Shown piece after piece: positions 1 to 53,402 of a stretch of 64,000 nt of DNA. The notes below the pieces were generated by a model, which saw nothing but the letters and a program-made list of their open reading frames with translations, was not told where the DNA came from and made no database searches. Each line of letters begins with the position of its first letter. Position 1 is the stretch's first letter. The DNA comes from an uncultured Nitrososphaeria archaeon (GTDB lineage: Archaea > Thermoproteota > Nitrososphaeria > Geothermarchaeales > JDFR-13), in the NCBI GenBank assembly GCA_964437705.1, contig CAYTHX010000003.1:65229-129228 (forward strand), given 5' to 3'. Both the position numbers and the translations under genes were made by a program.

Positions 1-1
1 A

Positions 2-2209
2 AATAATATTAAGAGCGCTCTTAGGAGACTTGAGCATTTTAAAAATGAGTTGAAAAAAGAGAAAACGGAATTAAATAAGAAGCTAGAAGAATTAGTAAGA
101 AAGAGAAATAATATTAATGAAAAAATCGTCACTATTGAAAAGGAAATTGAAAAGGCAGAAGAACTTTTAAGGACCGCGGAAAAAGAGATCTTAAGGCTTA
201 AAATCGCTAGAAAACATGGTTTTCAGGGTAATTACGTGGATGATGCGAAGTTTATTTTGAATTTGGCAAAGGACCTCGGAATTAGTGGCGTAATAGACCT
301 ACTTGGCAATAAAATCAAGGGACCTAAGGACATAATAAGTATATTAATGCATATACTAGGTAGAAGATGGTATGCAATACTCGTTAAGAATCGTGTAACA
401 GCCTATCAACTTTCCGAGTTAGCTATGAAACATAATAAGCGAGTAATAATAATACCACTTGATAATGTTAAAGCCATACATTCTACTAAGGAAAATGAGG
501 AACAATCCATCATTAAGTATTTGAAATATCCTAATTATTTAGGTCCACTTATAAACCAGCTACTACAGAGAGTATTAATCATAAATAATTTAGAAGAAGC
601 TGTCAAGAAAGCATCTGAGGGATACGATGTCGTTGATAGAAAAGCGCGTTTCTACATCTACCAAGGCGAATTTTATGTTGGAGAAAAAGCTGCTAAATAT
701 ACAAAGAAGGTAAAGATACAAGAGTTTGAGGAAATACTGTCTGATTTTAAAGACATGATTAAGGTGAGAAAAAGAGATTATAAGGAGTATGTAAGGGAAA
801 GAAATTCATTAAATGTAGAAATTTCAGAAGTAAGGAGTGAGATAGAATCCATAAATGAAATTATAAGGACAGTTAACCATAATATCAATATCTTAACAGA
901 AATTCTAAACTCATATAAGAGAAGACTAGACGATATATCAAATGAGTTATCAAGTTGCCTAGAAAAAGCTGAGATAAGTAAGAAAGATGTGGGAATTGAC
1001 GACTTTATATCTAGTTTAAAGAGATTAGAATATAAGAAAACAGAAATAGAGAGAGAACTCAGAGAAAATAGAGATATGTTGTCTGAAATTAACCAAAAGA
1101 TTATGAAAATAGAGAGTACAATTGCATTAAATAATAAGGAAATCTCAAATTTAGAAATGTTAAAGAAAACTTATGAAAAGAGAATTAGTATACTAAAGAG
1201 GAGAATTGATGGGATACTAAAGAGTAAGGAGAGAATTCTTCAGATTATTAAGAGAAAAAAAGAGAATTTAAATAACTTAAGGCGTAAGGAGAAAGAATTT
1301 ATAGGTATCAAACTAAAAACAGAGAAAAATGTTAAACATTTGGTAACTGAAATAAAAAAGTTGTCGCAACTTTATGATGATTATAATAAGTTAAAGTATA
1401 AAAAACATGAGGAGCTTTCTAGCTTAGAGAAAAGGAAAATTGAATTAGAAAAGGAAATTTCAAGCATTATTAAAGAGAGAAAAAGGTTGATAGAGGATAG
1501 GGAGAAACTAGGATTTGATTATGATGTATTTATATATGATTATAAACTGGCAGAGAAAATACTAAGTGAACTTAAGATGGAAACTCAGGAATTAGGAATG
1601 GTAAATCCGCTAGCTAAAAAAGAATATATGACAAGGTTAGAGCCATATAAACATATCTCTACTAGGAGAGAAGAATTGAGAAAAGAGGAGAAAGCTATTT
1701 TAGAATTTATAGACGATATTGATAAGAAAAGAGAAGCTATTTTAAAGGAAGGTCTTAAGAAGATAAATCAAAAAATGAACAGTATATTTAAGAAAGTATT
1801 TGTAGATGGAGAATTAAGAATAGAGTTAGAGGACAGTGAAAATATCGAAAGTGGATTAATACTAAATGTCAAGCTTCCTGGAAAACCATCTTTACCAGTT
1901 GCTTCGTTAAGTGGAGGAGAAAAATCTTTAGTTCTCGTTACATTTTTAATTGCTATTAATGCAATAAATAAAGATACCATTCTTTTACTAGACGAGATTG
2001 ATGCTCACATCGATCCAAATAATTTATCTAAATTTGCAAGAGCCTTAAGAGAGGAGGGGACTAATAATCAGATTATAATGGTTTCCCTAAAGCCTTCAAT
2101 CATCGAGAATTCCGATAATATAATTGGTGTTACAATTAGAGAGGGGATTAGTAAAGTTGTACAGTTACCGAAGGAGGTGGTCAAGATTTATGGAGGGAAA
2201 AGAGGATAG
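2..2209 (+). CDS. smc: SMC-family chromosome-maintenance ATPase, C-terminal ~730 aa. The 5' end is truncated: the reading frame is open to the window edge.
   Basis: Long heptad/coiled-coil sequence. Hinge-like segment (GRRWYAILV...KRVIIIPLDNVK, resembling the SMC hinge GR.TFLPLN). C-terminal ABC signature LSGGEKSLV and D-loop/Walker B LLLDEIDAHID. No in-frame stop between position 2 and the first listed start. Confidence 0.7.
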   Translation, partial: NNIKSALRRLEHFKNELKKEKTELNKKLEELVRKRNNINEKIVTIEKEIEKAEELLRTAEKEILRLKIARKHGFQGNYVDDAKFILNLAKDLGISGVIDLLGNKIKGPKDIISILMHILGRRWYAILVKNRVTAYQLSELAMKHNKRVIIIPLDNVKAIHSTKENEEQSIIKYLKYPNYLGPLINQLLQRVLIINNLEEAVKKASEGYDVVDRKARFYIYQGEFYVGEKAAKYTKKVKIQEFEEILSDFKDMIKVRKRDYKEYVRERNSLNVEISEVRSEIESINEIIRTVNHNINILTEILNSYKRRLDDISNELSSCLEKAEISKKDVGIDDFISSLKRLEYKKTEIERELRENRDMLSEINQKIMKIESTIALNNKEISNLEMLKKTYEKRISILKRRIDGILKSKERILQIIKRKKENLNNLRRKEKEFIGIKLKTEKNVKHLVTEIKKLSQLYDDYNKLKYKKHEELSSLEKRKIELEKEISSIIKERKRLIEDREKLGFDYDVFIYDYKLAEKILSELKMETQELGMVNPLAKKEYMTRLEPYKHISTRREELRKEEKAILEFIDDIDKKREAILKEGLKKINQKMNSIFKKVFVDGELRIELEDSENIESGLILNVKLPGKPSLPVASLSGGEKSLVLVTFLIAINAINKDTILLLDEIDAHIDPNNLSKFARALREEGTNNQIIMVSLKPSIIENSDNIIGVTIREGISKVVQLPKEVVKIYGGKRG

Positions 2210-2840
2210 AATATTAATCTTGGATCCTATTGAAAAACTTCGAAGAGTTAATCCGTGGACTATAAATATCATTGCAGAATTAAATAAAGTAATCAAGTTA
2301 TTACATGATAAAGTTAACTTCTTTATTGCAGGAATAGCTGTTGAGAATTCATCATTTATATATAAAAGTAAGGTATTAACAATCTTAACATCGCCTAAAA
2401 GAGCATATGAAGAAAACCGTTATATACGAAAACCTCTACCACGAATTCCAAAATTATCTGTAGCTATAACAACTGGAAGACCTCTTATAGACATCACTGA
2501 GTTACTCGAGAGAATTAATGAAATAATCGAAAGAAAACTGTCAACAGTAGTACATGATAAAATGGTAGTCGAAATTCCTATTTATTACGATGAAGCAGAG
2601 GATACTGAGAAAATTTATTCTGAAATTTCAAGACTTTTAGTATCATTTCTTAAGTATAGTGAATCAGGGATCTCAATAATCGACATATTTGATACACTGT
2701 CGAAATATAGATTTTCTGTGATTTTTATAGTTTTGCTAATGATGTATATGAATAACGAGATTGATTTCCAAGTTATTGAGAAAGATGGTGAAGTATATGA
2801 CATCAAAATACAGTTATACAGACATGAGAGGGTTACTTGA
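2190..2840 (+). CDS. scpA: ScpA-like kleisin (segregation and condensation protein A). Start chosen at the internal Met MEGKED, overlapping the smc stop.
   Basis: N-terminal motif ILILDPIEKLRRVNPWTINIIAELNKVIKLL matches the ScpA pattern (dpw.idi..l...yl.yi). Sits immediately 3' of smc with an overlap. Confidence 0.55.
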   Translation: MEGKEDRILILDPIEKLRRVNPWTINIIAELNKVIKLLHDKVNFFIAGIAVENSSFIYKSKVLTILTSPKRAYEENRYIRKPLPRIPKLSVAITTGRPLIDITELLERINEIIERKLSTVVHDKMVVEIPIYYDEAEDTEKIYSEISRLLVSFLKYSESGISIIDIFDTLSKYRFSVIFIVLLMMYMNNEIDFQVIEKDGEVYDIKIQLYRHERVT

Positions 2841-3282
2841 TGCACTCTTTTATGGTTCTTATAAGCCCATACATATTGACCAAATTAAGAAATTACTAAA
2901 TTTAACATCTAGAAAAGAAGCTCGGGTAATTCTGAAGGAATATATAACCGAATTTAATAAGTTCCATAAAGGTGTTAAGTTAGTTTCCAGGAAGGATTAT
3001 TACTATCTAACGATTAAGGATGACTACGTAGATAAAATTAGGAGATATCTTCCACAACCAACGCTATCACCTAGACAAATGGAAATATTAGCATTAATCT
3101 TTATGAAAAAGAGAATACCAGCCTCTGAGCTCAGAGATTATTTTGGACCACGTGTTTACTCAGATTTAAAGAAATTAGCGAGACTTCACTTAATACAGAG
3201 AGAATATATAAACAATAAACTTTATGTTACCCTTCGAGAAGAAGCAAAACTTTTAATTTTTACCAGAAGAAAAACATACTGA
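2761..3282 (+). CDS. scpB: ScpB-like winged-helix protein.
   Basis: GLLDALFYGSYKPIHIDQIKKLL and SPRQMEILALIFMKKRIPASELRDY resemble the tandem wHTH of ScpB. Operon position after scpA. Confidence 0.5.
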   Translation: MISKLLRKMVKYMTSKYSYTDMRGLLDALFYGSYKPIHIDQIKKLLNLTSRKEARVILKEYITEFNKFHKGVKLVSRKDYYYLTIKDDYVDKIRRYLPQPTLSPRQMEILALIFMKKRIPASELRDYFGPRVYSDLKKLARLHLIQREYINNKLYVTLREEAKLLIFTRRKTY

Positions 3283-4095: not shown

Positions 4096-4338
4096 GTGAA
4101 AGAAGCAGGTATAATAATACATTTAACTAAGAGTAATCTTTATGTTATTAAGGCTAGCGATAAAGTTTTGCCCGGAACAGATCTTTACGATGCAAGAGGA
4201 AGAAAAATTGCAGTATGTATAGACTTAATTGGACCAATTAATAAACCGTATATTGTTGCTAAGCCATTAATTAATCAACCAAATAAGTATGTCGGAAGCT
4301 ACATATATTATGAAAGGAGGAGAAAAAGTGTCAAATGA
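4096..4338 (+). CDS. gar1: H/ACA RNP protein Gar1.
   Basis: 80 aa. GTDLYDARGRKIAVCIDLIGPINKPYIVAKP resembles the Gar1 core. Confidence 0.7.
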   Translation: MKEAGIIIHLTKSNLYVIKASDKVLPGTDLYDARGRKIAVCIDLIGPINKPYIVAKPLINQPNKYVGSYIYYERRRKSVK

Positions 4339-10099: not shown

Positions 10100-12778
10100 T
10101 TATTTCTCTCTCATCTTTCCCGAAATGGATTTTCTCACGATGGATACACTTATAATTGAAATAATTAACATTGGGATAAAGTATATCCAGTATCTCTGAA
10201 TCAGATTCTCATAAACAGAAATTTTTATCTTCTCTAACTTAATTCCAATTGTGTTTATCGAATACCACTTTCCTCTATATTCAAACATTATTTCTGGAGG
10301 ATCTATAATATATATTCCTGGTGTCATACTAGCGACTTTAATATTTATATTTTTTTCGTTTGTATCAAAAGTAATAGTCACATTATACTCTTCGTTTTTG
10401 TCGTCAAACATTAAACCCTTGGGTAATAGCCACCTAAGATTGATTTTTTTAATTTCATCAATATCCCTGGTTATCCTAATTGTTACATTAATAGTATCTC
10501 CTTCAAGAACACTTATTTTATTCTTCATAATCTTAACATCCAATCCTTGATATACAGTTATATTTAAGCCACTCATATGTATAGACTGCTCAATCCCGCC
10601 GAATACATAATAAGCCAAAAATTTACTGATCATATAATTGCCAGGATTTTTACCTATAATAGTAATATTAACAACGTGGGACCCGCTTTTTAAACACTGA
10701 ACTGTGTTATTACGAAGGTAGACACTAAGACCAGAATACAGAGCTATAACTCTAACATCATATATCGGCTGATCACCTAAATTTTCGACTATTAACTTTG
10801 TCTTGTATTCTATGCCTCGAATCAACTTATCTGGTAACGTATCTAAGTATACTCTAACTGAATTTATGATTGGTTTAACTGGTAAAATATGTTTAGTAGA
10901 TCCATAGTCATTATATAGGAATACTGTAATTAGTGGCGTATAAGTAGCGGAATACTTATCTAATCTTATAGTGACAGTTAAATTAGTTTCTTCATCTAGA
11001 TCTAATTCACCCAAATTAAGGCTAAAAGACTTATCCACTATAGTGCTATTCTCTATTTCAAACTCATAATCAAATACCAGACCTTTTATGGATACTTTAT
11101 TGATCTTAGATAGACATATATTCTTAATTTTGTATTTAATGACAAACTCCTGTTCATTTTTCTCAGTTTGCATTATACTTGTTTTTATGGCTGGTAAAAA
11201 AGACTTACAAGGCCTAAACATTATAGGTATTACTTGGGTATTCATAGTGAACTGTTTATTAAGATATTTATACTGTAATGAATAATTAATATATATTATA
11301 TTATTTAAGTCACTTGTTGCTTTAGCTTTGAATAACACCTTTCTAGTCTCTTTAGGATTTATTTGAGGAATATATACATCACCTATGACAACATCATGTA
11401 CACTATTACTTCCATTATTTATAATTACAATAAAGTACGATAACTCATCCGTATATGATAAATTAAAACCACTGAAATCAGATATTGATATGTAAAGGAT
11501 TGGTGAATCATTTTCCGTATGAACTATATTCGTTGATGAGTAGTAAGTATAACTTATGTTGCCGGCCAGTGTAATAGTGGCTTTAGCTGCACTGATAAAA
11601 ATGAAATTATTAGTGAAATTCTCATTTATCGTAACTTCATAACTAAGTTCTTCTACACCATTTTGAGGAACTTTTTTAAGATTCCACATTAATTTCTCGT
11701 TACTATCTTTTAGATTAATACCCTCATACTCTGTCCACCAGGGATATTCCTCTATAGCAACGTTTTCCGCGTCAACATCACCTAGATTCCTAATTATTAA
11801 CTTAACATTTATAGTAGTATTAGGACAAATGTAGGTTGAATTGAAGTGTCTCTCGATTACTAATTCTGGTAACTTGTATGTATACATAATTTTTACGTCT
11901 TCCAATGAACTCCCTGGCTGATACTCCTTATAAATCACTACAATATCGTTTATCCTTGTTACGTTAAAATCATTAGGATACATATACACATTTGCATTTT
12001 TAATAAGAATTCTAACATAGGTACTCCTAGTATCATTTCTCGCTGATGTTTTCGCTATATCGGGGAATATGCTAGATAAATTGAACTCTCCACTTTCTAT
12101 GCTGGGATTTTTCATAAAAGAGTAAACGGATATAGTTGCAGAAGCATTACAATCGTTATTAAATTTGATTATTAAATCTATTAAGGAATAGTCACTTTTA
12201 ATAACTGTATCAGTATTTAAAAGTGAAAATACTCCTGTTAGGTTCCATGATAATGCCTTAAAGAGAGGGCCTTCGCTTCTTAGTATTCTTTGTGGATCCA
12301 ATGACGAAATAAAGATAAGTTCATCTTCACTTTCGTTTACTAGAATGAAATTAAGATTTAGTGAAGAACCAATTTTATCTATCACTTGATATAATGCTTC
12401 TTCATCTCCCTCAATAGTATGGTGAATCCTTATTACAACCATAGTTTCCCTAATGCAATCTAATGTATAGTTTAGTGATCTAGGACTCGATATTAATAGA
12501 TTATATGAACTACTCCAGTTATTTAATATACTAAATGTTAACTTAATTTCTGTTATAGCTGACAATTTGACTAGATTCATATCTAAGAAGTTTGAAATGT
12601 TAATTAATGGCTTTTCGGAGTACAAGCGCCAGAACAAGCCTTCACCAACTATAAAGACATCTAAGTACTCATCCGATTTATTACTGTCATTTCCCTTTAT
12701 ATATGGTACTTTGATTTGCAAGAGAAACATTAACATTATAAATAAAGCAATTATTTTCACAATTAATTTTCTCCTCAT
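10100..12778 (-). CDS. Large extracellular, heavily N-glycosylation-sequon-rich protein (892 aa) with an N-terminal signal/TM and a C-terminal TM anchor.
   Basis: N-terminal hydrophobic segment. Dozens of N-x-S/T sequons. C-terminal TM WIYFIPMLIISIISVSIV followed by basic residues. No recognisable catalytic motif. Confidence 0.5.
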   Translation of the reverse strand: MRRKLIVKIIALFIMLMFLLQIKVPYIKGNDSNKSDEYLDVFIVGEGLFWRLYSEKPLINISNFLDMNLVKLSAITEIKLTFSILNNWSSSYNLLISSPRSLNYTLDCIRETMVVIRIHHTIEGDEEALYQVIDKIGSSLNLNFILVNESEDELIFISSLDPQRILRSEGPLFKALSWNLTGVFSLLNTDTVIKSDYSLIDLIIKFNNDCNASATISVYSFMKNPSIESGEFNLSSIFPDIAKTSARNDTRSTYVRILIKNANVYMYPNDFNVTRINDIVVIYKEYQPGSSLEDVKIMYTYKLPELVIERHFNSTYICPNTTINVKLIIRNLGDVDAENVAIEEYPWWTEYEGINLKDSNEKLMWNLKKVPQNGVEELSYEVTINENFTNNFIFISAAKATITLAGNISYTYYSSTNIVHTENDSPILYISISDFSGFNLSYTDELSYFIVIINNGSNSVHDVVIGDVYIPQINPKETRKVLFKAKATSDLNNIIYINYSLQYKYLNKQFTMNTQVIPIMFRPCKSFLPAIKTSIMQTEKNEQEFVIKYKIKNICLSKINKVSIKGLVFDYEFEIENSTIVDKSFSLNLGELDLDEETNLTVTIRLDKYSATYTPLITVFLYNDYGSTKHILPVKPIINSVRVYLDTLPDKLIRGIEYKTKLIVENLGDQPIYDVRVIALYSGLSVYLRNNTVQCLKSGSHVVNITIIGKNPGNYMISKFLAYYVFGGIEQSIHMSGLNITVYQGLDVKIMKNKISVLEGDTINVTIRITRDIDEIKKINLRWLLPKGLMFDDKNEEYNVTITFDTNEKNINIKVASMTPGIYIIDPPEIMFEYRGKWYSINTIGIKLEKIKISVYENLIQRYWIYFIPMLIISIISVSIVRKSISGKMREK

Positions 12779-12929: not shown

Positions 12930-13913
12930 CTATGATGGATCCTTTATACCGTCTGGTCCGATCATAAATATCGCTTCTCCTGGAGGATGTCTTGGGCTAT
13001 CAACTATACTAGCGATTCTCGTGTTACCCTTTGCCTTTCTTAGATAAATTCTATATGTAACTGCGTGAGCTACAACATGTCCTCCGATTGGTCTAGTTGG
13101 GTCTCCATAGATAACGTCAGGAGCTGCAAGAACTTGATTTGTAATCACAATTGCCACGTTATATAATTCGGCCATTCTGATTAGGTCATGCATCATGACA
13201 TTTAGAAGTTGTTGTCTTTCCGACAATTGTCCTCTTCCAATATACTCTGCTCTGAATGGTGCAACTGCAGAGTCTATTAATACTAATCTGGCTCCCGTTT
13301 CTCTTATCTTTTTCGGTAAATCTCTGACTAGCAAAATCAGATGACTAGCCCCTCTAGCCTTAGCTACATAAATATTTCTTAGGGTTTCTAGTGGGTCTAG
13401 CCCTTTTGCATCAGCAATCTGTATGACTCTCTCTGATTTAAAGGTCATCTCAGTATCTATGTAGATCGCTGGTGACTCCAAGCCACCTTTGTCAATGGGT
13501 AGCTGTACGTTTACAGCAAGTGTATGACAAAGCTGTGTTTTTCCAGTTCCAAATTCTCCATAAAATTCCGTTATTGCTTGAGTTTCGATTCCTCCAAGAA
13601 GAAGATTATCTAAATGCTTAGAGCCAGTCGTTATATATGAGACTAGCTTTCGTCTTTCATGAAGTTTATCTGCAGTCATAAATTCCTCTTCTAATAACCC
13701 TAATTTCTGTAATCTTTTCCTAGCAGCTTCTTGTAGCTTAATTACCCTATCTACAGATCCCCCAATAATTTCAGCAATGTAAGTAGGGGCGTAAACAAGT
13801 AGATCAACAATTGAATGTATACCCGCGGAAACCAATTTTTGCTTTGTAGACGGTCCTATTCCCTCTAATGATTCAAGTTCCAATTCTTCTTCATATTTTT
13901 TATATTCACTCAT
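12930..13913 (-). CDS. radA: DNA repair and recombination protein RadA.
   Basis: N-terminal HhH region. Walker A GEFGTGKTQLCH. Rad51/RadA core. Confidence 0.95.
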   Translation of the reverse strand: MSEYKKYEEELELESLEGIGPSTKQKLVSAGIHSIVDLLVYAPTYIAEIIGGSVDRVIKLQEAARKRLQKLGLLEEEFMTADKLHERRKLVSYITTGSKHLDNLLLGGIETQAITEFYGEFGTGKTQLCHTLAVNVQLPIDKGGLESPAIYIDTEMTFKSERVIQIADAKGLDPLETLRNIYVAKARGASHLILLVRDLPKKIRETGARLVLIDSAVAPFRAEYIGRGQLSERQQLLNVMMHDLIRMAELYNVAIVITNQVLAAPDVIYGDPTRPIGGHVVAHAVTYRIYLRKAKGNTRIASIVDSPRHPPGEAIFMIGPDGIKDPS

Positions 13914-17274: not shown

Positions 17275-18393
17275 ATGGAGGAACACTGCATGACAAAGAT
17301 ATTTAGAGGAAACGGAAGAAGGTACTTAGACTTCTCATACGTTCCACCAAGATTACCCCACAGAGAAAAAGAAATTGCAATACTACTAGAACTATTAGAA
17401 CCCATAATTATGGGTGAAATTGAGGCATACAGTATCCCAGTACTATATGGAAAAACAGGGACTGGAAAAACAACAACAGCAAAAAAAGTTCTCGAGATCC
17501 TCTCTGAAAAAGAGATGAAAATTCATGCTCACACAATGTTAATTAACTGTGGTATTAATCAAAAGCCATTTAGCGTCGTACAAAGGATATCTCATCAAAT
17601 TCTCGAGACCTATGTGAGAGGATATAGCTTAGAGGAAATGATAGAAATGATTTACGATGCTTTAGAGATTAGAGATGAGTTTTTAATTTTAGTGTTAGAT
17701 GAGATAGATGAGTTATTAAGATTTGATAGAGGAAGGCTTTTACAAGTTGTTTCTAAAATTGGAGAAACAAGAGGAGTTAGAAGAATATTTCCAGTACTTA
17801 TTGCTAGAAGATATGAGCAAATACTTGATTTACCTGATCACGTAAGAAACTTAATTTCTGGACCACTAATTCACTTTAAGCCATATACTATAGACCAGAT
17901 GAGAGATATAATCATTGATAGAATAAGACTCTCAATAAATGAAAATTGTATATCAGAGAACGCTATAAAGGTAATATCTATAATATCATCAGTTCTCGAG
18001 GGAGGAGACGCTAGAGCTGCAATCTCAATACTTTTAAATGCCGGAGATCTTGCAGAAAGAGAAGGAGATGATAAAATTTTGGTTGATCATGTAAGAAGAA
18101 TATATGAGCAAAGGTCTAGCTATATATACCGTTTTTTAGGTAAATTAGAACCAAAGTTAACACGTATTTTATCATGTCTTGCAGAAATATTTAGTAAAAA
18201 AAGAGATGAGTATATTATTAATACCTCAGTTATGAGTGAAATACAGCTTTGTATGGCAAATAGATTCATGCAACCATTAACCTTCAGAGAAATTGAGGGA
18301 TTATTAGAAAAGTTATGCGAGAGAAAAATACTTCTAAAAGTTAATAATTCATATATGATGGTCTCAATATCACCAATGTCTATTTTAATGTAG
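17275..18393 (+). CDS. cdc6: Orc1/Cdc6 replication initiator paralogue.
   Basis: LPHREKEIAILLELL. Walker A YGKTGTGKTT. Walker B LVLDEID. C-terminal winged helix. 372 aa. Confidence 0.85.
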   Translation: MEEHCMTKIFRGNGRRYLDFSYVPPRLPHREKEIAILLELLEPIIMGEIEAYSIPVLYGKTGTGKTTTAKKVLEILSEKEMKIHAHTMLINCGINQKPFSVVQRISHQILETYVRGYSLEEMIEMIYDALEIRDEFLILVLDEIDELLRFDRGRLLQVVSKIGETRGVRRIFPVLIARRYEQILDLPDHVRNLISGPLIHFKPYTIDQMRDIIIDRIRLSINENCISENAIKVISIISSVLEGGDARAAISILLNAGDLAEREGDDKILVDHVRRIYEQRSSYIYRFLGKLEPKLTRILSCLAEIFSKKRDEYIINTSVMSEIQLCMANRFMQPLTFREIEGLLEKLCERKILLKVNNSYMMVSISPMSILM

Positions 18394-18997: not shown

Positions 18998-19105
18998 TGG
19001 GGCCGGTGGGATTTGAACCCACGACCGCCAGCGAACTGTAGATGGAATACTTCCCCAGGTTCGCCGGTCACCTCTGGCGTCCTAGCCAAGCTAGACCACG
19101 GCCCC
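18998..19105 (-). tRNA. tRNA gene with ~35-40 nt of intervening sequence. The isotype is unresolved.
   Basis: Minus-strand acceptor GGGGCCG/CGGCCCC, D-arm GTCT-AGCTTGGCTA-GGAC, T-arm GTGGG-TTCAAAT-CCCAC, discriminator A. The anticodon region is interrupted and cannot be resolved by eye. It contains nested complementary segments GCCAG/CTGGC and CGAAC/GTTCG around a Pro-like loop CTGGGGA. Confidence 0.7.
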
Positions 19106-28395: not shown

Positions 28396-28497
28396 TGGTG
28401 GACCGGGTGGGAATCGAACCCACGACCCCCCGCATGCCAAGCGGGTGTTTTAGGGTTGGGGCCATCCCCAACCTCTCTACCGCTGAGCTACCGGCCC
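28396..28497 (-). tRNA. tRNA-Ala (GGC) with a 27-nt intron at the D-stem/position-26 boundary. CCA is encoded.
   Basis: Acceptor GGGCCGG/CCGGTCC carrying the G3:U70 Ala identity pair. Contiguous anticodon arm CCCGC-TTGGCAT-GCGGG. T-arm GTGGG-TTCGATT-CCCAC. D-stem GCTC...GAG|C split by AGGTTGGGGATGGCCCCAACCCTAAAA. Confidence 0.8.
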
Positions 28498-32307: not shown

Positions 32308-33441
32308 TTACTTAAAAGTTAATATATTAAGGTCTTCCGGTATTCTGGCTAACTGCTTAATTCTACTACCTATGATATTTTTAACTCCTTTTTCATATGC
32401 TAAATCTACAAGTCTTTGTGTAATAATACCGTCGAGAATAATCGTGTCAACTTTGCCTTTTTCAACTTCCTGTAACTCTTCTATCAAACTACCTACACTA
32501 ACTCTCTTTATAATTTCATTATCCTTTATAAGTAAAGCTTCTAGTGTACCAATAATCTCATTAATATATGGCGTATAAGGCTTTAGTTCCTCTCTTTCAA
32601 TGTCTTCCTTATTAAATGGTTTCATATTTTTTAATGCTTCAAATACCTCCTCGGGCTTTAGTTCCTCGACCTCTTTACCCTCTGGTGCAAATGCGACAAA
32701 GTCTATTCTGCTAATGGTACTAGCTAATTTTTTAAGGTTTAAATAGCCACTACGATCACCATCCAGAAAAGCTATTATCTTCTTTTTATTTTTTAGTATG
32801 TCTTTCAATTTTGGTGGTATTTTTCCACCACCTATACTAATGACATTTTCAATTCCATACTTAACGAGTGTAATAACGTCGGCTCTACCCTCCACGAGGA
32901 TAACTTCGTCACTCGATAATGCCTTAGGACCAAGTGTTAGTCCATTCATATCTTTAACCTGCTTAGGCGCTAAGTAATTTTCTAATTCTCGTAGTACATC
33001 TTCTGCTTCTGGAATCTTCTCAAGCTTCCAAGACTCTAAGATCTTCTTTGCTCTAGAAATGATCATTTTTATCTTCTCCTCTCGGAAATCTTTAATACTT
33101 TTTAACTTTACTTTCGCTCTGAACGGACCGACTTGATCGACAATCTCTATCATAGCGGCTATTAACGCTGTCCCAACGATATCTAGAGTACTAGGAACCT
33201 TAATTATTCCAGAGGTAGTTCTATTTCTTGATTTAATTTCGACCTCAATACGCCCTATCTTACCTGTTTTAGCCATTTCCCTTAGGTCAAACGTAGGGCC
33301 AAATAATCCTTCTGTCTGTCCAAAAATTGCTCCGATAATATCGCTTCTTTCGACACTACCATCTACATCGAAAGTAAATTCTAGGATATATTTAGTATAG
33401 CGAACTTCACCGATACTTTCATTAACCATAAACATCACCAA
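32308..33441 (-). CDS. dnaG: Archaeal DnaG-like primase (TOPRIM; exosome-associated).
   Basis: TOPRIM LVEGRADVITLVKYG...FLDGDRSG and conserved archaeal DnaG N-terminus. Confidence 0.8.
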   Translation of the reverse strand: MVMFMVNESIGEVRYTKYILEFTFDVDGSVERSDIIGAIFGQTEGLFGPTFDLREMAKTGKIGRIEVEIKSRNRTTSGIIKVPSTLDIVGTALIAAMIEIVDQVGPFRAKVKLKSIKDFREEKIKMIISRAKKILESWKLEKIPEAEDVLRELENYLAPKQVKDMNGLTLGPKALSSDEVILVEGRADVITLVKYGIENVISIGGGKIPPKLKDILKNKKKIIAFLDGDRSGYLNLKKLASTISRIDFVAFAPEGKEVEELKPEEVFEALKNMKPFNKEDIEREELKPYTPYINEIIGTLEALLIKDNEIIKRVSVGSLIEELQEVEKGKVDTIILDGIITQRLVDLAYEKGVKNIIGSRIKQLARIPEDLNILTFK

Positions 33442-42907: not shown

Positions 42908-43041
42908 TGGGTTGGGGAAGCGGCCATAGGGCCGGGGAAACACCCGGTCCCATTCCGAACCCGGAAGTTAAGCCCGGCCACGCCGGGGACTAGCAGGGTG
43001 CGGGAGCCCCTGTGAACCCCCGGTGCTGCTTCCCCAACCCA
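42908..43041 (+). rRNA. rrf: 5S ribosomal RNA (solitary, not linked to 16S/23S).
   Basis: GC-rich. Terminal helix GGGTTGGGGAAGC/GCTTCCCCAACCC. Internal CCGAACCCGGAAGTTAAGCC loop C/helix III consensus. TATA-like AAAATTAAAATATAG about 25 nt upstream. Confidence 0.9.
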
Positions 43042-43724: not shown

Positions 43725-45224
43725 TTAAATTTTAAATATCCTGCTGTAAGCTCTTAACCGAATTGTAGGTACACTCATCGGACCTATTAGTGATGATGCG
43801 TCTAGAAAACCAGCTTCCACCCTAATATAGTCACCAACCCTTATGTACTCATCTGTATATAGTGATAAGTCACCTCTATATGAAATATTTATCGGGTCTC
43901 CATTCGTATCCTCAATTACAAACTCGTATTGATCTTGAGTCATGGGCGCTGTATGTGGAATTAGAGATGGTTCCCTAACTACTCTACCTTCGACGCTCAC
44001 AACCCTATCAGCTATGCTAAGATCTCGAGCCTTTTTAGTCTTTACATCTATAGGTGGTATAGACTTTGAGCTAGATGGATTAATTATAATTGTACTAGCT
44101 TCGTCGCAAAACACAAAAATTTGGTCGGTTCTTTTTGCTCCCCTAAATCCACTTATCCTAATTATATCTCCTACATTAGCTTCTTTGCCTCGTAATACAG
44201 CCTCTTCACCAATTAGTACTAGTGTAGCATCCGCTGTATCATCGATAACATATAATCCTAGCGATCTATTTCCAGTTTTCATACTAACTCTCTCTTTACC
44301 CTTAGCACCAATACGTAAATCTAGGGATTTTAGGTTATATCCATTCTCGACCTCTATGAGTGATGACTCTTTATATATTATATCAATTTTCACTCCAGGT
44401 AAGTATTCCACATGTGATGATCTACCTATATGAATTTCTCTCTCACCTCTCATACCAGTTTTTACCCTTCCATTAAATATCATAATGTTATCGCCGGGTT
44501 TGATCCAGCTATATTCGTCAACGGCAGTATTCCATAAAACAACTTTTATGGCACATTCACCAGCTGCTAACAAGAAATTTGCTAATGTGCCCTCTCGATC
44601 TGCAGCTTTATATCGCCTTACACTAATACTCGTTATTACTCGTCCATATACATTTACACGAGACTCTGAAAGTTCACATTCATCAAGCCTAACTACATAA
44701 TCTCTAATGCTAGGGTATGATGAATCTTTCTCAATATCTATCTTAATTTGTGCATTTTCGCTTACGTGAATCTCAACATCGCCTATAATACTTGTTTTTG
44801 TCGATGCACCACTAATATCTACAACTGCACCTGGAATTATTCCTAACTCTTCCAGCTTATCTCTAGTATATCCCCAGAAAATTATATTTACAACACCAGT
44901 TTTATCGCCTATTCCGCCTCTAACATAAGGCCTTTTACCAAATGTTGGGGAATCAAAATATTCCTCATTCTTTAGCCATAATATCCTCCCTATTACCCTA
45001 ACACGATTAAGCCCTCCTCTCAACTTACCAATTTCTAAATAATCAGCTACCTTTGAATCCAGTCTAACACCAAGCTCTAGGGTTACTAAGTATAATGCTG
45101 TTTTAGGGGACATATTAAGTTCGATCATTTTTTTGGAAACCATTCTCTCGATATCCTTATATGTTAAATCGGGTCTTTGCCTTAAGATTTCATTAACTAT
45201 CTTAGGGTCTAGGACGTCACTCAT
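43725..45224 (-). CDS. Multi-OB-fold nucleic-acid-binding protein (RPA-like), hypothetical.
   Basis: Three to four repeated beta-rich segments of OB-fold size with G..V.V.GRV-type patterns. Weak assignment. Confidence 0.35.
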   Translation of the reverse strand: MSDVLDPKIVNEILRQRPDLTYKDIERMVSKKMIELNMSPKTALYLVTLELGVRLDSKVADYLEIGKLRGGLNRVRVIGRILWLKNEEYFDSPTFGKRPYVRGGIGDKTGVVNIIFWGYTRDKLEELGIIPGAVVDISGASTKTSIIGDVEIHVSENAQIKIDIEKDSSYPSIRDYVVRLDECELSESRVNVYGRVITSISVRRYKAADREGTLANFLLAAGECAIKVVLWNTAVDEYSWIKPGDNIMIFNGRVKTGMRGEREIHIGRSSHVEYLPGVKIDIIYKESSLIEVENGYNLKSLDLRIGAKGKERVSMKTGNRSLGLYVIDDTADATLVLIGEEAVLRGKEANVGDIIRISGFRGAKRTDQIFVFCDEASTIIINPSSSKSIPPIDVKTKKARDLSIADRVVSVEGRVVREPSLIPHTAPMTQDQYEFVIEDTNGDPINISYRGDLSLYTDEYIRVGDYIRVEAGFLDASSLIGPMSVPTIRLRAYSRIFKI

Positions 45225-45295: not shown

Positions 45296-45586
45296 TCACT
45301 CTTTCTTTACATAGATCTTGATTCTAGAAACATATTTTGGTAACCCCCTAATAATACCTTTACTTACCATATCAATCTTGATATCCTCCACCCTCACGTT
45401 ACTATCCTCATAAAACTTATTTAAGAAGTTAGCTACATCTACAGCCTTTATAATATTTCTACCCATACCTTCTATAATTAACTCATCATGACCTTTACTT
45501 AATAACTTGATGCACACATTAAGATAATACGACATGTTTTTCTTACCGACGTATACCGTAGGAATCTCCTTCTCCTCAACACTCAT
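45296..45586 (-). CDS. albA: Alba chromatin protein (Sac10b family paralogue).
   Basis: VYVGKKNMSYYLNVCIKLLSKGHDELIIEGMGRNIIKAVDVANFL aligns to the Alba core (GKKPVMNYV...ARGRAISKAVD). Confidence 0.75.
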   Translation of the reverse strand: MSVEEKEIPTVYVGKKNMSYYLNVCIKLLSKGHDELIIEGMGRNIIKAVDVANFLNKFYEDSNVRVEDIKIDMVSKGIIRGLPKYVSRIKIYVKKE

Positions 45587-48942: not shown

Positions 48943-49018
<76 letters not shown>

Positions 49019-50135: not shown

Positions 50136-50549
50136 CTACTTAATTGGTATATATAGGCTTGATCTAGTTGCTCCCACTCCAGGCATCCCATGTTTGACAG
50201 GTTTGTTAGTTATTGCAAATTCTCCTAGCCTTTTACCTATCATTTCTGGTCTGATCTCTACTGGTACGAAATCTTTTCCATTATGTACATATATTGTAAG
50301 CCCTACCATTATTGGTAGTATTGGCATTTCTCTTGCATGTGTTTTTATCTGTCCTTTATACTTCCCTTCCACCGCTTTATATACCTTCCTAAGAAGAGCC
50401 TTTTCTTCCGGTGTAAAGTTTCCTCTTAATATATGCCTTTTTTCTTTTGATGGTAACAATTTTGCAAACTCTTCTAAGCTCATCTGTTTTAACTCTTCTA
50501 GTGTATATCCCCTATATCTAAATTTTTTCCTTCCTACTATAACGCTCAT
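50136..50549 (-). CDS. rps19: 30S ribosomal protein S19.
   Basis: [11 protein letters not shown]...GKRLGEF core of S19. Lies at the r-protein cluster end. Confidence 0.85.
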
Positions 50550-50587
50550 TTTCCTATATTGATATCTTATAGGTCTTTATTAAGTTT

Positions 50588-51301
50588 TTATCTCTTCCTT
50601 CTTCCTGTCCTCCTTGCTCCAAAACTACCTACTTTAGCACCTGGCGGGGCATTTCTAGGTACAGTTTTCGGCTTTCCTACGTGTTGATGTGAACCTCCGC
50701 CAAATGGATGGTCTACCGGGTTCATCGCTACTCCTCTAACTCTTGGGAACCTTTTTCCACTCTTTGCTTTTAACCAGTGATACTTCTTTCCTGCCTTTAA
50801 AAATGGCTTATCTACTCTTCCACCGGCCGCTATTACCCCTATTACCGCTCTACAATTTGGATCTAAAACAATACTTTTTCCCGATGGTAATCTAACTTCT
50901 ATTCCATGTGCAGATGGACCTATCACTTGTGCATATGTCCCGCTTGATCTAGCAAATTTTCCTCCATCCCCAGGTACTTTTTCTACATGTGAAATTAGTG
51001 TTCCAGGTGGAATATCCTTTAGTCTCATTATATCTCCAGGTGAGGGCTCATCCACATCATAGAACCTAATCATTTTTCCTAGATATAACCCCTCTACAGC
51101 ATATATATAGAATTCCTCACCATCTTCAGTTTTGAATTTTGCTAGTGGTGTACCTCTACCTGGATTATGCATTATATCTACAACAACCGCTGTTTTTGAT
51201 TCTTCAGTCGGTGGTATTCTAGATGGAGCTATACATCTATGTGTTAAAGCCTTAAATATCGACCCCCGCCCTCTTCTCTGTGCTAATATCCTTTTACCCA
51301 T
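50588..51301 (-). CDS. rpl2: 50S ribosomal protein L2.
   Basis: Conserved L2 C-terminal GGGSHQHVGKP-type region (NPVDHPFGGGSHQHVGKP). Confidence 0.95.
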   Translation of the reverse strand: MGKRILAQRRGRGSIFKALTHRCIAPSRIPPTEESKTAVVVDIMHNPGRGTPLAKFKTEDGEEFYIYAVEGLYLGKMIRFYDVDEPSPGDIMRLKDIPPGTLISHVEKVPGDGGKFARSSGTYAQVIGPSAHGIEVRLPSGKSIVLDPNCRAVIGVIAAGGRVDKPFLKAGKKYHWLKAKSGKRFPRVRGVAMNPVDHPFGGGSHQHVGKPKTVPRNAPPGAKVGSFGARRTGRRKR

Positions 51302-51312
51302 ACATTTTCACC

Positions 51313-51594
51313 TCACAATATTCCTAATGCAACTGCTACTTTCGTCGCATCATCTATACTCCTAAAGGTTACTATCGCTTTCTTCTCTCCCTTAGGTGTA
51401 ATTAGAGTATTTACCTTCTTAACTTTGACCCCAAACTTCTTTTCAATAATATCCTTAATTAGCTTTTTATTTGCATTAATATCTACTATAAAAGTAACTT
51501 TCCCAAGCTTTTCTATTTGCAAAACAGCTTTTTCCGTCATTAAGGGAGTTTTTATCACTTTATAAAATGGGTCTATACCTATTTTTTCAGCCAT
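51313..51594 (-). CDS. rpl23: 50S ribosomal protein L23.
   Basis: Size and position between L4 and L2. KVTFIVD...KVNTL pattern. Confidence 0.8.
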   Translation of the reverse strand: MAEKIGIDPFYKVIKTPLMTEKAVLQIEKLGKVTFIVDINANKKLIKDIIEKKFGVKVKKVNTLITPKGEKKAIVTFRSIDDATKVAVALGIL

Positions 51595-52405
51595 ACAACA
51601 TCACCCTATTGACAACATATTTTAACCTCTCCTCAATGATTGGTATTGCAGACTCAATCCATACAGTAAGCCTTCCAGGAACACCACCAGGTGCAAGGTG
51701 GAGTACCGAAACGTCTCTTGCTGATATAATATCTACTCCAAGAACATTCCTTGCTGCTTTAAATATTCCCTTATCCTCTCCATACACTATCAATGGACCC
51801 TTCCTAACCTTCTTACCTCTCCCTCTCCATTTTGCTTTTCCACCAACATGCTTTATTTTCTCTCTAACTCTTAGTATATCATCTATAATGCCAATACGCT
51901 CCGCAAACTCTCTAAACTCCTTAGTTGTTGAAATCGACTCTACTTCTTCATCAACTATTAATGGTATATGTGGAACATTATCTATTATGTGGCCTCTCTT
52001 CCTAACTAGCTCTGGATTTGCTGTAGCTGCAACTGCAGCTGCTATTCCAAGAAGCCTCTCCTTTTTATTTAACTCTTTGTAAATCTTTTTTTCAGGCGTT
52101 GTTACGTGTGGTTTCCTACCTCCCCTAGCCATAGCTACAATAGCAGCTCTACCCCTAAGTGGTGGAGTCTTAATTCTCGGAACTCTAGCTAAACCAAGAC
52201 CAACACCAAAATACTCTGCACCCGTTTCTCTACCAGCTAGTGGATATCTACCTTTCGGCTGTAACCTATGTGTATGCTGATGTATGAATACCCTTCTAAT
52301 AACATCTAGCTTAATTGGTACAGTAAATACTTTAGGAACCTCGATCTTCTTGACCTCTTCACCAAGTATATTAAATACTGGAATCTCCATTTTAATGCAC
52401 CTCAC
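51587..52405 (-). CDS. rpl4: 50S ribosomal protein L4 (L1e).
   Basis: Position in the cluster. GRYPLAGRETGAEYFG / ARGGRKPH patterns. Confidence 0.85.
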   Translation of the reverse strand: MRCIKMEIPVFNILGEEVKKIEVPKVFTVPIKLDVIRRVFIHQHTHRLQPKGRYPLAGRETGAEYFGVGLGLARVPRIKTPPLRGRAAIVAMARGGRKPHVTTPEKKIYKELNKKERLLGIAAAVAATANPELVRKRGHIIDNVPHIPLIVDEEVESISTTKEFREFAERIGIIDDILRVREKIKHVGGKAKWRGRGKKVRKGPLIVYGEDKGIFKAARNVLGVDIISARDVSVLHLAPGGVPGRLTVWIESAIPIIEERLKYVVNRVMLYG

Positions 52406-53402
52406 CTAAATATGTATACATTATCTCAACTGGTTTTGCAAGTTCCTCTGAAACAGGCCTAGCTGTAAAGCGCATTCTAATAAGTCGCTTAGCAGGTCCT
52501 GGCACAGAACCCTTTAGTAATATAAACTGGCTCTTGATAACACCGTACCTTCTAAACTCTAGTGGCTTATCAAATTCATCTGGAGACTTTATATCAAGAA
52601 TCTTAAGCTTATAAATAGTTCTCCTATGGAATCCTAGCTGACCAAATAGAGGAACTGTATACATAGTTGCTGACGGCTTCCATGGACCAAGTGCACCCGG
52701 CTTCCGCTTGCACTTTCTAGACTTATGATGTAATATCTTGATTCCAAATCTCTTTACGGGGCTTTGGAAACCTTTACCCTTCGTGACGGCAACTACGTCA
52801 ATATACTGTCCAGGCTTAAATACGTCAGTAATATTTAGCTCCTTACCAAGCATCCCCTTTGCATATTCCCACTTTTTATCTATAGTCGACTTTCCACCTA
52901 GTTGAATCTCGAATACCTCCGGCTTCTTCTTACGTATTCCGGCCTTATGTGGCTGCATAGCAACCAAGAGACGTAACACATAGATTTTATCTAGGTTACT
53001 TTCAATTCTCTCTAACACATCTGTATTTCCGCCATTTAACCTCTGAACTCTCCTTCTAATGAAATCTGGAATATCATTAGCTACTGCTGTACCGAAGCAC
53101 ATTAACGCGTTTTTATATATATCCGCTTTATATGCAACTACACCTAGCACGTAAAGAGGTGGAGTTTCAATTACAGTTGCAGCCGAGAAAACTTCTTTTC
53201 CGTATGTTGGTGAGTATGGATAATTGTCAATATAAAATACACTTGTCATACCAGCTTTATAACCAGCAAAACCAAGAGGAATAACGCCATCTACATCTAC
53301 ATCAGGCCAATACTTTATAATAGGAACTATGCTTTTAGCCCTCTTTCTCGGCGTAAATGCCAATGATCCACGCTTTGGAGCATGCTTTTTCCGCGCACCC
53401 AT
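52392..53402 (-). CDS. rpl3: 50S ribosomal protein L3.
   Basis: FAGYKAGMTSV...VTKGKGFQSPVKRF L3 signature. Confidence 0.9.
   Translation of the reverse strand: MGARKKHAPKRGSLAFTPRKRAKSIVPIIKYWPDVDVDGVIPLGFAGYKAGMTSVFYIDNYPYSPTYGKEVFSAATVIETPPLYVLGVVAYKADIYKNALMCFGTAVANDIPDFIRRRVQRLNGGNTDVLERIESNLDKIYVLRLLVAMQPHKAGIRKKKPEVFEIQLGGKSTIDKKWEYAKGMLGKELNITDVFKPGQYIDVVAVTKGKGFQSPVKRFGIKILHHKSRKCKRKPGALGPWKPSATMYTVPLFGQLGFHRRTIYKLKILDIKSPDEFDKPLEFRRYGVIKSQFILLKGSVPGPAKRLIRMRFTARPVSEELAKPVEIMYTYLGEVH

Follow-up and report, generated by a model that had tools for sequence, protein, structure and literature searches.

A fast-evolving smc-kleisin-scpB trio, very probably a chromosomal operon of an archaeon related to Candidatus Geothermarchaeota

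Introduction

The prokaryotic Smc-ScpAB complex, as described in Bacillus subtilis, is built on an SMC protein that is roughly 1150 aa long and carries Walker A, hinge, signature and Walker B; its kleisin is short and two-domained, its ScpB subunit is a tandem winged-helix protein, and the genes are adjacent. In all of these points the locus described below is alike. In the published picture Smc-ScpAB has been lost in Crenarchaeota, with coalescin ClsN replacing it in Sulfolobales. ClsN itself is confined to Sulfolobales (PMC9389158). Thaumarchaeota carry smc, scpA and scpB, and their scpA adjoins scpB (Jeon et al. 2020, PMC7055376), while smc lies apart from scpA in 14 of the 14 Thaumarchaeota surveyed (PMC7055376). 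Six archaeal ScpA-ScpB pairs showed no mutual binding in vitro, and the middle region of ScpA spans 30-66 residues in archaea as against 61-72 in bacteria; archaeal Smc complexes have been proposed to be generally kite-less binary rings (PMC7055376).

Results

The window, by which we mean the whole 64,000-nucleotide stretch of DNA that was analysed, opens with three co-directional genes on the + strand that overlap one another: smc and the kleisin gene by 20 nt, the kleisin gene and scpB by about 53 nt. Their features are as follows.

2..2209, + strand: smc, the C-terminal 735 codons plus stop; the 5' end lies beyond the window, and the full protein has 1152 aa (P0005)
2-229, + strand: terminal part of SMC arm 1, preceding the hinge
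230..688, + strand: SMC hinge (dimerisation) domain, linking arm 1 to arm 2 (Pfam SMC_hinge and AlphaFold2/Foldseek)
689..1723, + strand: putative descending coiled-coil arm of SMC, with approximate, inferred boundaries; the end-to-end SMC equivalog alignment spans this stretch
1724..2206, + strand: C-terminal half of the SMC ATPase head, with script-located motifs: the LSGGE signature (1907-1921), Walker B, ILLLDEID (1979-2002), and the SLK switch motif
2190..2840, + strand: scpA-type kleisin gene, 216 aa, starting at an ATG 20 nt upstream of the smc stop; assigned by profile searches
about 2211-2543, + strand: N-terminal helical domain of the kleisin, by ScpA-N homology (6ivh_A)
about 2592-2837, + strand: C-terminal winged-helix domain of the kleisin, by ScpA C-WHD homology (4i99_C)
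2788..3282, + strand: scpB, tandem winged-helix kite subunit, 164 aa as called (Pfam SMC_ScpB)
ATG 2785 and ATG 2797, + strand: alternative scpB starts

An earlier note on this DNA had seen SMC hallmarks in the first, partial gene and had proposed that its missing N-terminus be sought upstream. We recovered it from public contigs: the last 735 residues of the full-length protein (P0005) are exactly those of the window translation, and the Walker A motif, GPNGSGKS, begins at residue 33, outside the window. The part encoded in the window scored over the Pfam gathering scores for SMC_N (2.7e-18) and for SMC_hinge (5e-10; 40.2 bits against a 22.5-bit cut-off, window SMC residues 95-202), and matched TIGR02168 at 1.8e-70 over profile positions 430-1178. 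The full-length protein matched TIGR02169 at 5.5e-113 (378.7 bits), with residues 5-1139 aligned to positions 1-1163 of the 1165 in the profile, and TIGR02168 at 2.5e-110 (370 bits); the next best model after these SMC equivalogs was ASRP, at 102 bits. The NCBIfam equivalog cut-offs were nevertheless missed (378.7 against 729.4 bits for TIGR02169, and 370 against 567.35 bits for TIGR02168), as they were by the four nearest SMC relatives. Since the E-values (1e-110 to 1e-113) come with full coverage, the matches reflect homology, and the shortfall is a sign of divergence rather than of membership in another family. Outside the clade, no SMC is more than about 28% identical to it. The nearest relatives of solved structure are the Pyrococcus and Bacillus Smc heads (5xei, 7.8e-54; 4i99_A, 7.6e-45), and the C-lobes of solved Smc heads match residues 991-1142 of the full-length protein.

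An AlphaFold2 model of the hinge region (window:119-811; pLDDT 86.7) has helices of at least 30 residues flanking the hinge on both sides. When this model was compared with the PDB by Foldseek, the top-ranked structures were the SMC hinges 5h69, 6wg6, 4rsj and 1gxl, with E-values down to 2.8e-12, and the best-ranked matches comprised hinges of SMC, cohesin, condensin and Smc5/6; against 1gxj_A the target TM-score was 0.73, with an rmsd of 2.9 Å over 159 columns. The hinge segment that had been read as GR..(V/I)IIPLD does lie inside the hinge, but its actual letters are KRVIIIPLD, the canonical GR being lost. The hallmarks seen earlier were otherwise borne out, by the Pfam domains above threshold, by LSGGE and ILLLDEID and by the matched hinge fold. 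Judged by sequence and by the predicted fold, the product of the first gene is an SMC protein with a true hinge, two long arms and a complete set of ATPase motifs.

The product of the third gene matched Pfam SMC_ScpB (PF04079) at 5.4e-16 (59 bits against a 27.4-bit cut-off, residues 14-136), TIGR00281 at 5.4e-9, and the solved ScpB structures 6juv_A (3.2e-09 over 145 residues, 14-158) and 3w6j_B (1.2e-4). The earlier reading of this gene as ScpB-like with a double wHTH thus stands, and by its sequence the product is ScpB. The exact 164-aa protein is present in the public protein collection.

The Pfam searches that had been suggested for all three genes succeeded for SMC_N, SMC_hinge and ScpB, but the kleisin on its own had no direct ScpA match: no Pfam family, PF02616 included, was found at E <= 1, and no NCBIfam model either. 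Its assignment therefore rests on profile searches. A small clade profile of six sequences (A2) gave a marginal ScpA match only (6ivh_A, E 0.02). With the clade-only profile A5, built of 12 sequences from Pfam-negative relatives, the two best PDB matches were the ScpA C-WHD (4i99_C, 3e-4) and the ScpA N-domain (6ivh_A, 4e-4, query positions 8-118), in the correct order along the protein. Profile A4, extended by more distant relatives from an exhaustive HMMER search, matched 6ivh_A at 1.3e-18, 4i99_C at 1.5e-8, 5xns_C at 5.5e-7 and Rad21 at 6.8e-7, and the (D/N)PW-I-(D/N)-I motif of the N-domain aligned with ScpA-N. Among 27 kleisin relatives found by HMMER, eight matched PF02616 ScpA (best 1.7e-08) and five Rad21_Rec8; PF02616 was reached only by the more distant of the profile-found relatives. 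The AlphaFold2 monomer model of the kleisin, made from a three-sequence alignment, had a pLDDT of 38 and a C-terminus of pattern helix-helix-helix-strand-strand; because of the low pLDDT we do not use it as evidence beyond this secondary-structure pattern. These results support the identification of the 216-aa protein as a ScpA-type kleisin with an N-terminal helical and a C-terminal winged-helix domain, in agreement with the ScpA N-terminal motif noticed before in this kleisin-like gene. The exact 216-aa protein was called on 10 public contigs.

The E-values for all three genes are far outside chance, and the trio was found in all nine of the related lineages examined, seven of which are represented by named or long contigs. 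The trio is real but fast-evolving. In the nine lineages, whose SMCs are 29-56% identical, it occupies the same place, between fibrillarin/Nop56 and the S8e/SRP19/TFB housekeeping genes, and the order Mut7-C / smc / kleisin / scpB / S8e / SRP19 is kept wherever the contig reaches far enough. Such constancy of location among divergent lineages indicates vertical inheritance and not mobility; neither a patchy distribution nor flanking mobile-element genes were seen for the locus. Where gene calls were available (the window and lineages L007, L011 and L013), scpB and the 3' end of the kleisin gene share 29-56 nt; in the other four lineages scpB comes directly after the kleisin gene. This suggests co-translation and a shared function.

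In a neighbour-joining tree the nine SMCs were monophyletic in 100 of 100 bootstraps. The clade sat on a long branch and grouped with thaumarchaeal SMCs in 0 of 100 bootstraps, its position among archaeal SMCs being unsettled in that tree, and for this reason we make no claim on the deeper origin of the protein. A scan of GTDB species genomes with exact peptides taken from the full-length SMC gave no relative, so that the species of the window is evidently absent from those representatives.

The earlier note had placed the genes in a Sulfolobales-like context, while allowing that the organism might not be a typical Sulfolobus. The RadA encoded in the window is 83% identical to that of 'Candidatus Geothermarchaeota archaeon ex4572_27', and the next named matches come from Geothermarchaeota, Nitrososphaerales and Conexivisphaera. 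Sulfolobales were absent from the named proteins, a minority, among the best 120 RadA matches, and Pyrococcus RadA scored above Sulfolobus RadA. The window also encodes a multi-OB RPA-like protein, and its GC content is low (about 33%). About 20 genes around the trio stand in identical order in JdFR-13, identified as Geothermarchaeota (Ca. Scotarchaeum otlingeri), and four further Geothermarchaeota/Nitrososphaeria MAGs share the greater part of this gene order (five named in all). The RadA matches, the RPA-like protein and the synteny with the five MAGs all speak against the Sulfolobales-like context; the other branch, that of an organism unlike a typical Sulfolobus, is the right one. Geothermarchaeales have been placed as an order in the class Nitrososphaeria (PMC10547907). 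With lineage judged from best hits, synteny and submitters' names rather than from a multi-marker phylogeny, the trio is very probably the chromosomal smc-scpA-scpB operon of a low-GC thermophilic archaeon related to Candidatus Geothermarchaeota.

Discussion

By homology with Smc-ScpAB, two SMC chains would dimerise via the hinge and fold back as coiled-coil arms of about 50 nm, and their ABC-type heads would engage on ATP through Walker A, Walker B and the signature motif. The kleisin would close the ring, its N-terminal helical domain on one SMC neck and its C-terminal winged helix on the other head cap, and ScpB, a tandem winged-helix kite, would presumably sit on the kleisin. Such a ring may organise the chromosome by entrapping DNA and extruding loops, driven by ATP. 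We infer complex formation, ATPase activity and loop extrusion, and the ScpA-ScpB contact especially, from this homology.

The contact of ScpB with the kleisin is the step on which readings differ. A ternary complex is not assured, because the six archaeal pairs failed to bind and the kleisin middle segment is equally short here. The genes might instead encode a binary Smc-ScpA ring, with the ScpB homologue co-expressed yet not bound to the kleisin, as proposed for archaea generally; we regard this as possible but doubtful. It agrees with the absence of interaction in six of six archaeal ScpA/ScpB pairs and with a middle segment that, counted between the helices aligned with 6ivh alpha3 and alpha4, has about 33 residues and falls within the short archaeal range of 30-66 (PMC7055376). 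Against it, scpB overlaps or directly adjoins the kleisin gene across lineages, and the middle segment is conserved within the clade, P87, I100 and D101 being invariant or nearly so, which one would not expect of a simple linker. Tentatively, Geothermarchaeales may keep a three-subunit Smc-ScpAB holocomplex, encoded in one overlapping operon, whose SMC and kleisin have rapidly co-diverged. If ScpB does bind the kleisin, the complex would be a counter-example to kite-less archaeal Smc rings (PMC7055376), and it would offer a tractable thermostable system for studying the ScpB-kleisin contact.

Whichever subunits assemble, other identities for the trio were tested and rejected on model scores, hinge fold and gene context. 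Wadjet (JetABC) or Lamassu defence modules, which are mobile, share the logic of SMC-like ATPase, kleisin and kite, and the SMC head of the trio does match PADLOC ATPase models generically (mad3, 163 bits; LmuB, 91; JetC, 35.6). The kleisin and ScpB, however, match neither JetA nor JetB, and the adjacent genes include no JetD/Toprim nuclease. Wadjet genes run jetA-B-C-D, whereas the order here is smc-kleisin-kite. The fixed housekeeping context in nine lineages, with the vertical inheritance it implies, further makes a defence module highly improbable.

The proposal of a Sulfolobales-type system, in which a Sulfolobus-like genome would encode ClsN (coalescin) or some other archaea-specific SMC-related protein together with its accessory proteins, draws on the GC content of about 33%, the thermophile-like gene context and a weak match to the ASRP model (2.2e-29). 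That match (NF045487) is confined to residues 20-476 and, at 102.5 bits, stays below the 300-bit cut-off, whereas the SMC models align end to end at 370-379 bits. ClsN/ASRP shares the ABC-type head of the SMC superfamily, but in the present case the SMC hinge is complete and the partners are a kleisin and a kite protein, and the lineage markers are those of Geothermarchaeota/Nitrososphaeria, not Sulfolobales; we therefore give this proposal almost no credence. The comparison with ClsN and Rad50 profiles for which the earlier note had called thus came out clearly on the side of SMC (ASRP 102 bits, Rad50 <=90). That the first ORF encodes Rad50, the DNA double-strand-break repair ATPase, has negligible probability, since Rad50 models match its N-terminal head at <=89.5 bits (cut-offs 700-1087), while its middle has the SMC hinge fold instead of a zinc hook, P0005 contains no CxxC, and the neighbouring genes encode the kleisin and ScpB and not Mre11.

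The Smc-ScpAB identity of the trio does not contradict the published picture of condensin loss, because the host is related to Geothermarchaeota and allied with the Thaumarchaeota, which bear SMC-ScpAB. Smc-ScpAB is to be expected in Geothermarchaeota-related archaea, and the trio is in this sense essentially ordinary; its description extends the known distribution of the complex to the uncultured order Geothermarchaeales. With an SMC below the NCBI naming cut-offs and a kleisin invisible to Pfam, automated surveys could wrongly score condensin or kleisin as absent.

Comparison with known systems

Our comparison set for Smc-ScpAB was that of Bacillus subtilis together with the Smc-ScpA of Pyrococcus and Thermococcus, and the nearest solved parts are 5xei, 4i99 and 3zgx for Smc, 6ivh and 4i99_C for ScpA, and 6juv and 3w6j for ScpB. 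Relative to these systems the trio is far more divergent, to the point that PF02616 misses the kleisin and the hinge GR has become KR. Wadjet JetABC(D) differs in the JetA/JetB similarity and the JetD that the trio lacks. In contrast to the split arrangement of Thaumarchaeota, smc, scpA and scpB are contiguous here and at eight other Geothermarchaeales-type loci, overlapping where genes were called: a fully fused smc-scpA-scpB operon. In its contiguity the trio is like the loci described for Korarchaeota, Archaeoglobales and Methanomassiliicoccales (PMC7055376).

Results

The first 3,282 nt of the window (1-3282) hold three plus-strand genes, each overlapping the next:

2-2209 (+): smc, C-terminal part; open frame from nt 2, stop at 2207-2209, 735 residues in the window
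2190-2840 (+): kleisin gene; ATG at 2190, 216 codons, start 20 nt before the smc stop
2788-3282 (+): scpB; GTG at 2788, 164 codons, alternative ATG starts at 2785 and 2797

The overlap between scpB and the kleisin gene is about 53 nt. After scpB come 134 nt of AT-rich spacer and then, from 3417, the gene for ribosomal protein S8e.

We found that the first gene encodes a true SMC. Pfam recognized both SMC_N (2.7e-18) and SMC_hinge (5e-10) in the 735-residue fragment, each above threshold, and the fragment aligned to positions 430-1178 of TIGR02168 (1.8e-70). The N-terminus, missing from the window, was recovered from public sequence: ten public contigs from metagenomes encode an identical kleisin, one of them 99.9% identical to the window in DNA, and before it lies a gene for a 1152-aa SMC (P0005), the C-terminal end of which is exactly the window's 735 residues. 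The exact-match contigs listed come from ENA, Logan and JGI sample 3300014887, and the longest recorded, of 207,663 bp, is held under NCBI. P0005 carries Walker A (GPNGSGKS) at residue 33, LSGGE at 1053, Walker B (ILLLDEID) at 1077 and an SLK switch motif at 1112. The full-length protein matched TIGR02169 (5.5e-113; residues 5-1139 on profile positions 1-1163 of 1165) and TIGR02168 (2.5e-110) end to end, and the closest solved structures were Pyrococcus and Bacillus Smc heads (5xei, 7.8e-54; 4i99_A, 7.6e-45; 3zgx, 5.8e-38). An AlphaFold2 model of the hinge (window:119-811, 61-sequence alignment) had a mean pLDDT of 86.7; SMC, cohesin, condensin and Smc5/6 hinges took the top ranks when it was compared with the PDB by Foldseek, and it superimposed on 1gxj_A with a target TM-score of 0.73 and an rmsd of 2.9 Å over 159 columns.

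Judged by its sequence, this SMC has diverged to an unusual degree. It reaches about half the bit scores that NCBI's curated cut-offs demand, only four clusters among 5.8 billion proteins exceed 30% identity to it, and beyond these four full-length matches fall to 28% identity or less. The nine SMCs of the clade were monophyletic and long-branched (100/100 bootstraps) in a neighbour-joining tree that does not settle their deeper position.

The kleisin protein by itself gave no Pfam or NCBIfam match, and a word-indexed search with it returned two close relatives only. HMMER, run exhaustively with a 3-sequence profile over 1.84 billion representative proteins, collected 34 proteins at E ≤ 1e-3; among 27 aligned relatives, Pfam assigned PF02616 (SMC_ScpA) to 8 and Rad21_Rec8 to 5, and 5 of the 27 matched the CAP-H2 C-terminal winged helix. 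The cleanest test used a profile built from the 12 closest relatives only, five of which were scanned with Pfam, none with a match. Its two best PDB matches were 4i99_C (3e-4, query positions 126-196), in which the C-terminal winged helix of Pyrococcus furiosus ScpA is seen in complex with the Smc head, and 6ivh_A (4e-4, query positions 8-118), an N-terminal ScpA domain from Thermococcus onnurineus; both kleisin domains were therefore found, and in the correct order. With the wider 27-sequence profile these matches rose to 1.5e-8 for 4i99_C and 1.3e-18 for 6ivh_A, and cohesin Rad21 was matched at 7e-7. In the alignment with 6ivh, its DPW-I-D-I and alpha3 segments are matched by the conserved motifs NPW-I-N-I and AGIA-ENSS-IY-K. 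An AlphaFold2 model of the monomer, built on three aligned sequences (pLDDT 38), was too poor for use. The profile matches show that the product of the second gene is an ScpA-type kleisin.

The third gene is scpB. Its product matched Pfam SMC_ScpB at 5.4e-16 (59 bits against a cut-off of 27.4 bits) and TIGR00281 at 5.4e-9, as well as the solved Pyrococcus yayanosii ScpB homologue 6juv_A (3.2e-09, residues 14-158) and the bacterial ScpB 3w6j_B (1.2e-4). The reading of the trio as SMC, ScpA and ScpB in the earlier note was thus borne out by the motifs, SMC models and hinge fold, by the kleisin profile matches and by Pfam SMC_ScpB. The same note had set the trio in a Sulfolobales-like context, which proved wrong: RadA matches and conserved gene order point to a Geothermarchaeota-type organism.

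The RadA of the window was 83% identical to that of 'Candidatus Geothermarchaeota archaeon ex4572_27', followed at 61% each by another Geothermarchaeota protein and a 'Thermoprotei archaeon' MAG protein, and then by Nitrososphaerales (59%), Conexivisphaera (56%) and Nitrososphaeria/Thaumarchaeota (55%). No Sulfolobales occurred among the named proteins in the best 120 matches, most of which are without a name; against solved structures, RadA scored higher with the Pyrococcus protein (320 bits) than with that of Sulfolobus (279 bits). The source organism appears to be a relative of the ex4572_27 MAG. At 43728-45224 (-) the window encodes a 499-aa multi-OB replication factor A/RPA homologue (best match 4.3e-21). 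Sulfolobus has a short single-OB SSB rather than a multi-OB RPA, a difference that serves as a lineage hint only.

Among SMCs with a named source, the nearest (43-45% identity) is encoded on the 1.68-Mb contig MTMA02000006.1 of GCA_002011075.2, the MAG JdFR-13 ('Candidatus Geothermarchaeota', now Ca. Scotarchaeum otlingeri, order Geothermarchaeales). This order has been placed as sister to Conexivisphaerales plus Nitrososphaerales (PMC10547907). The contig of the window, two relatives and JdFR-13 share one order of about 20 genes: a polysaccharide-synthesis gene, Nop56, fibrillarin, two CBS genes (missing in one relative), Mut7-C, smc, kleisin and scpB, and then S8e, SRP19, TFB, FtsJ, Trm1, RNase HII, PhoU and PHO4. 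Amino-acid identity to JdFR-13 was 75% for S8e, 72% for fibrillarin, 66% for TFB, 59% for ScpB, 45% for SMC and 37% for the kleisin. In a low-GC subclade (syntenic loci L001, L007, L011 and L013), SMC and kleisin diverge much faster than fibrillarin, S8e and TFB, with ScpB intermediate. A Pfam hinge match is not on record for the JdFR-13 SMC.

Scanning one genome per GTDB species (r232) with a kleisin-specific pattern revealed five loci, in JdFR-13, two 'Candidatus Geothermarchaeota archaeon' MAGs, a 'Nitrososphaeria archaeon' and the 'Thermoprotei archaeon SZUA-1514' MAG; neither of two scans detected the species of the window among the r232 species representatives. By tblastn, all five share the order Mut7-C, smc, kleisin, scpB, S8e, SRP19, TFB-like gene, FtsJ, Trm1, RNase HII.

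Elsewhere in the window we noted genes for RadA (12933-13913, -), an Orc1/Cdc6 homologue (17275-18390, +) and a Toprim (DnaG-type) protein (32311-33441, -), recorded as lying no more than 20 kb from the condensin operon. A stand-alone 5S rRNA gene (42916-43034, +), an L3-L4-(L23)-L2-S19 ribosomal protein cluster (50139-53402, -; L23 inferred from position) and the gene for the chromatin protein Alba (45299-45586, -) are ordinary core-genome content, which confirms a chromosomal, non-mobile context. ARAGORN called only tRNA-Val (48945-49018), missing two tRNA genes identified by Rfam at 18998-19105 (-; 108 nt) and 28399-28497 (-; 99 nt); these two presumably contain introns, which are common in tRNA genes of this part of the archaeal tree. 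An 80-aa ORF between SRP19 and TFB (4096-4338, +), with no Pfam match on record, keeps its position in four related lineages with called genes, and by eye we take it to resemble, as a candidate, the H/ACA protein Gar1. An 892-aa ORF (10103-12778, -) was assigned to no family and has only a sub-threshold DUF11 match (4.6e-5); all long related contigs encode at this syntenic position a protein of 862-898 aa with faint CARDB/CLIPPER matches, and its product may be a surface protein.

Discussion

By homology, the SMC would dimerize at its hinge and its heads would engage on ATP. The kleisin N-domain would bind one SMC neck and the winged helix the other cap, closing a ring predicted to entrap and extrude DNA. 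ScpB might instead stay outside this Smc-kleisin ring, a variant that we consider possible, if rather unlikely. None of six archaeal ScpA-ScpB pairs bound in the study of Jeon et al. 2020 (PMC7055376), which explained this by the shortness of the middle region, and the middle segment of the present kleisin is also short (about 33 residues in the alignment to 6ivh). However, this segment is kept within the clade (P87, I100, D101), and scpB translationally overlaps the kleisin gene in lineages with gene calls.

Other identities fared worse. The archaea-specific SMC-related (ClsN/Sph) model reached 102 bits over the N-terminal half only, much weaker than the SMC models, and Rad50 models at most 90 bits; given the SMC model matches and the SMC hinge fold, the first gene is therefore not a Rad50- or ClsN-type gene lacking an SMC hinge, the outcome that the earlier note had named as its refutation. 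A Wadjet/Lamassu defence module was likewise rejected: neither kleisin nor ScpB matched any PADLOC model, JetC reached only 35.6 bits, no nuclease gene is adjacent, and throughout the lineage the locus keeps its place among housekeeping genes.

The trio is a divergent Smc-ScpAB of an already known type, and its functional reading was right. The SMC and kleisin of this clade have diverged so far that they fall below NCBI cut-offs or go wholly unrecognized by Pfam. Published surveys found smc, scpA and scpB in each of 14 Thaumarchaeota and in 0 of 77 Thermoprotei (PMC7055376), and seven Sulfolobales with ClsN and without SMC (Yoshinaga et al. 2022; PMC9389158); Smc-ScpAB in a Geothermarchaeota-type genome fits this picture and does not challenge it. 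Whereas Thaumarchaeota have an adjacent scpA-scpB pair with smc elsewhere (PMC7055376), the trio here forms one overlapping operon. A similar adjacency has been reported in Korarchaeota, Archaeoglobales and Methanomassiliicoccales.
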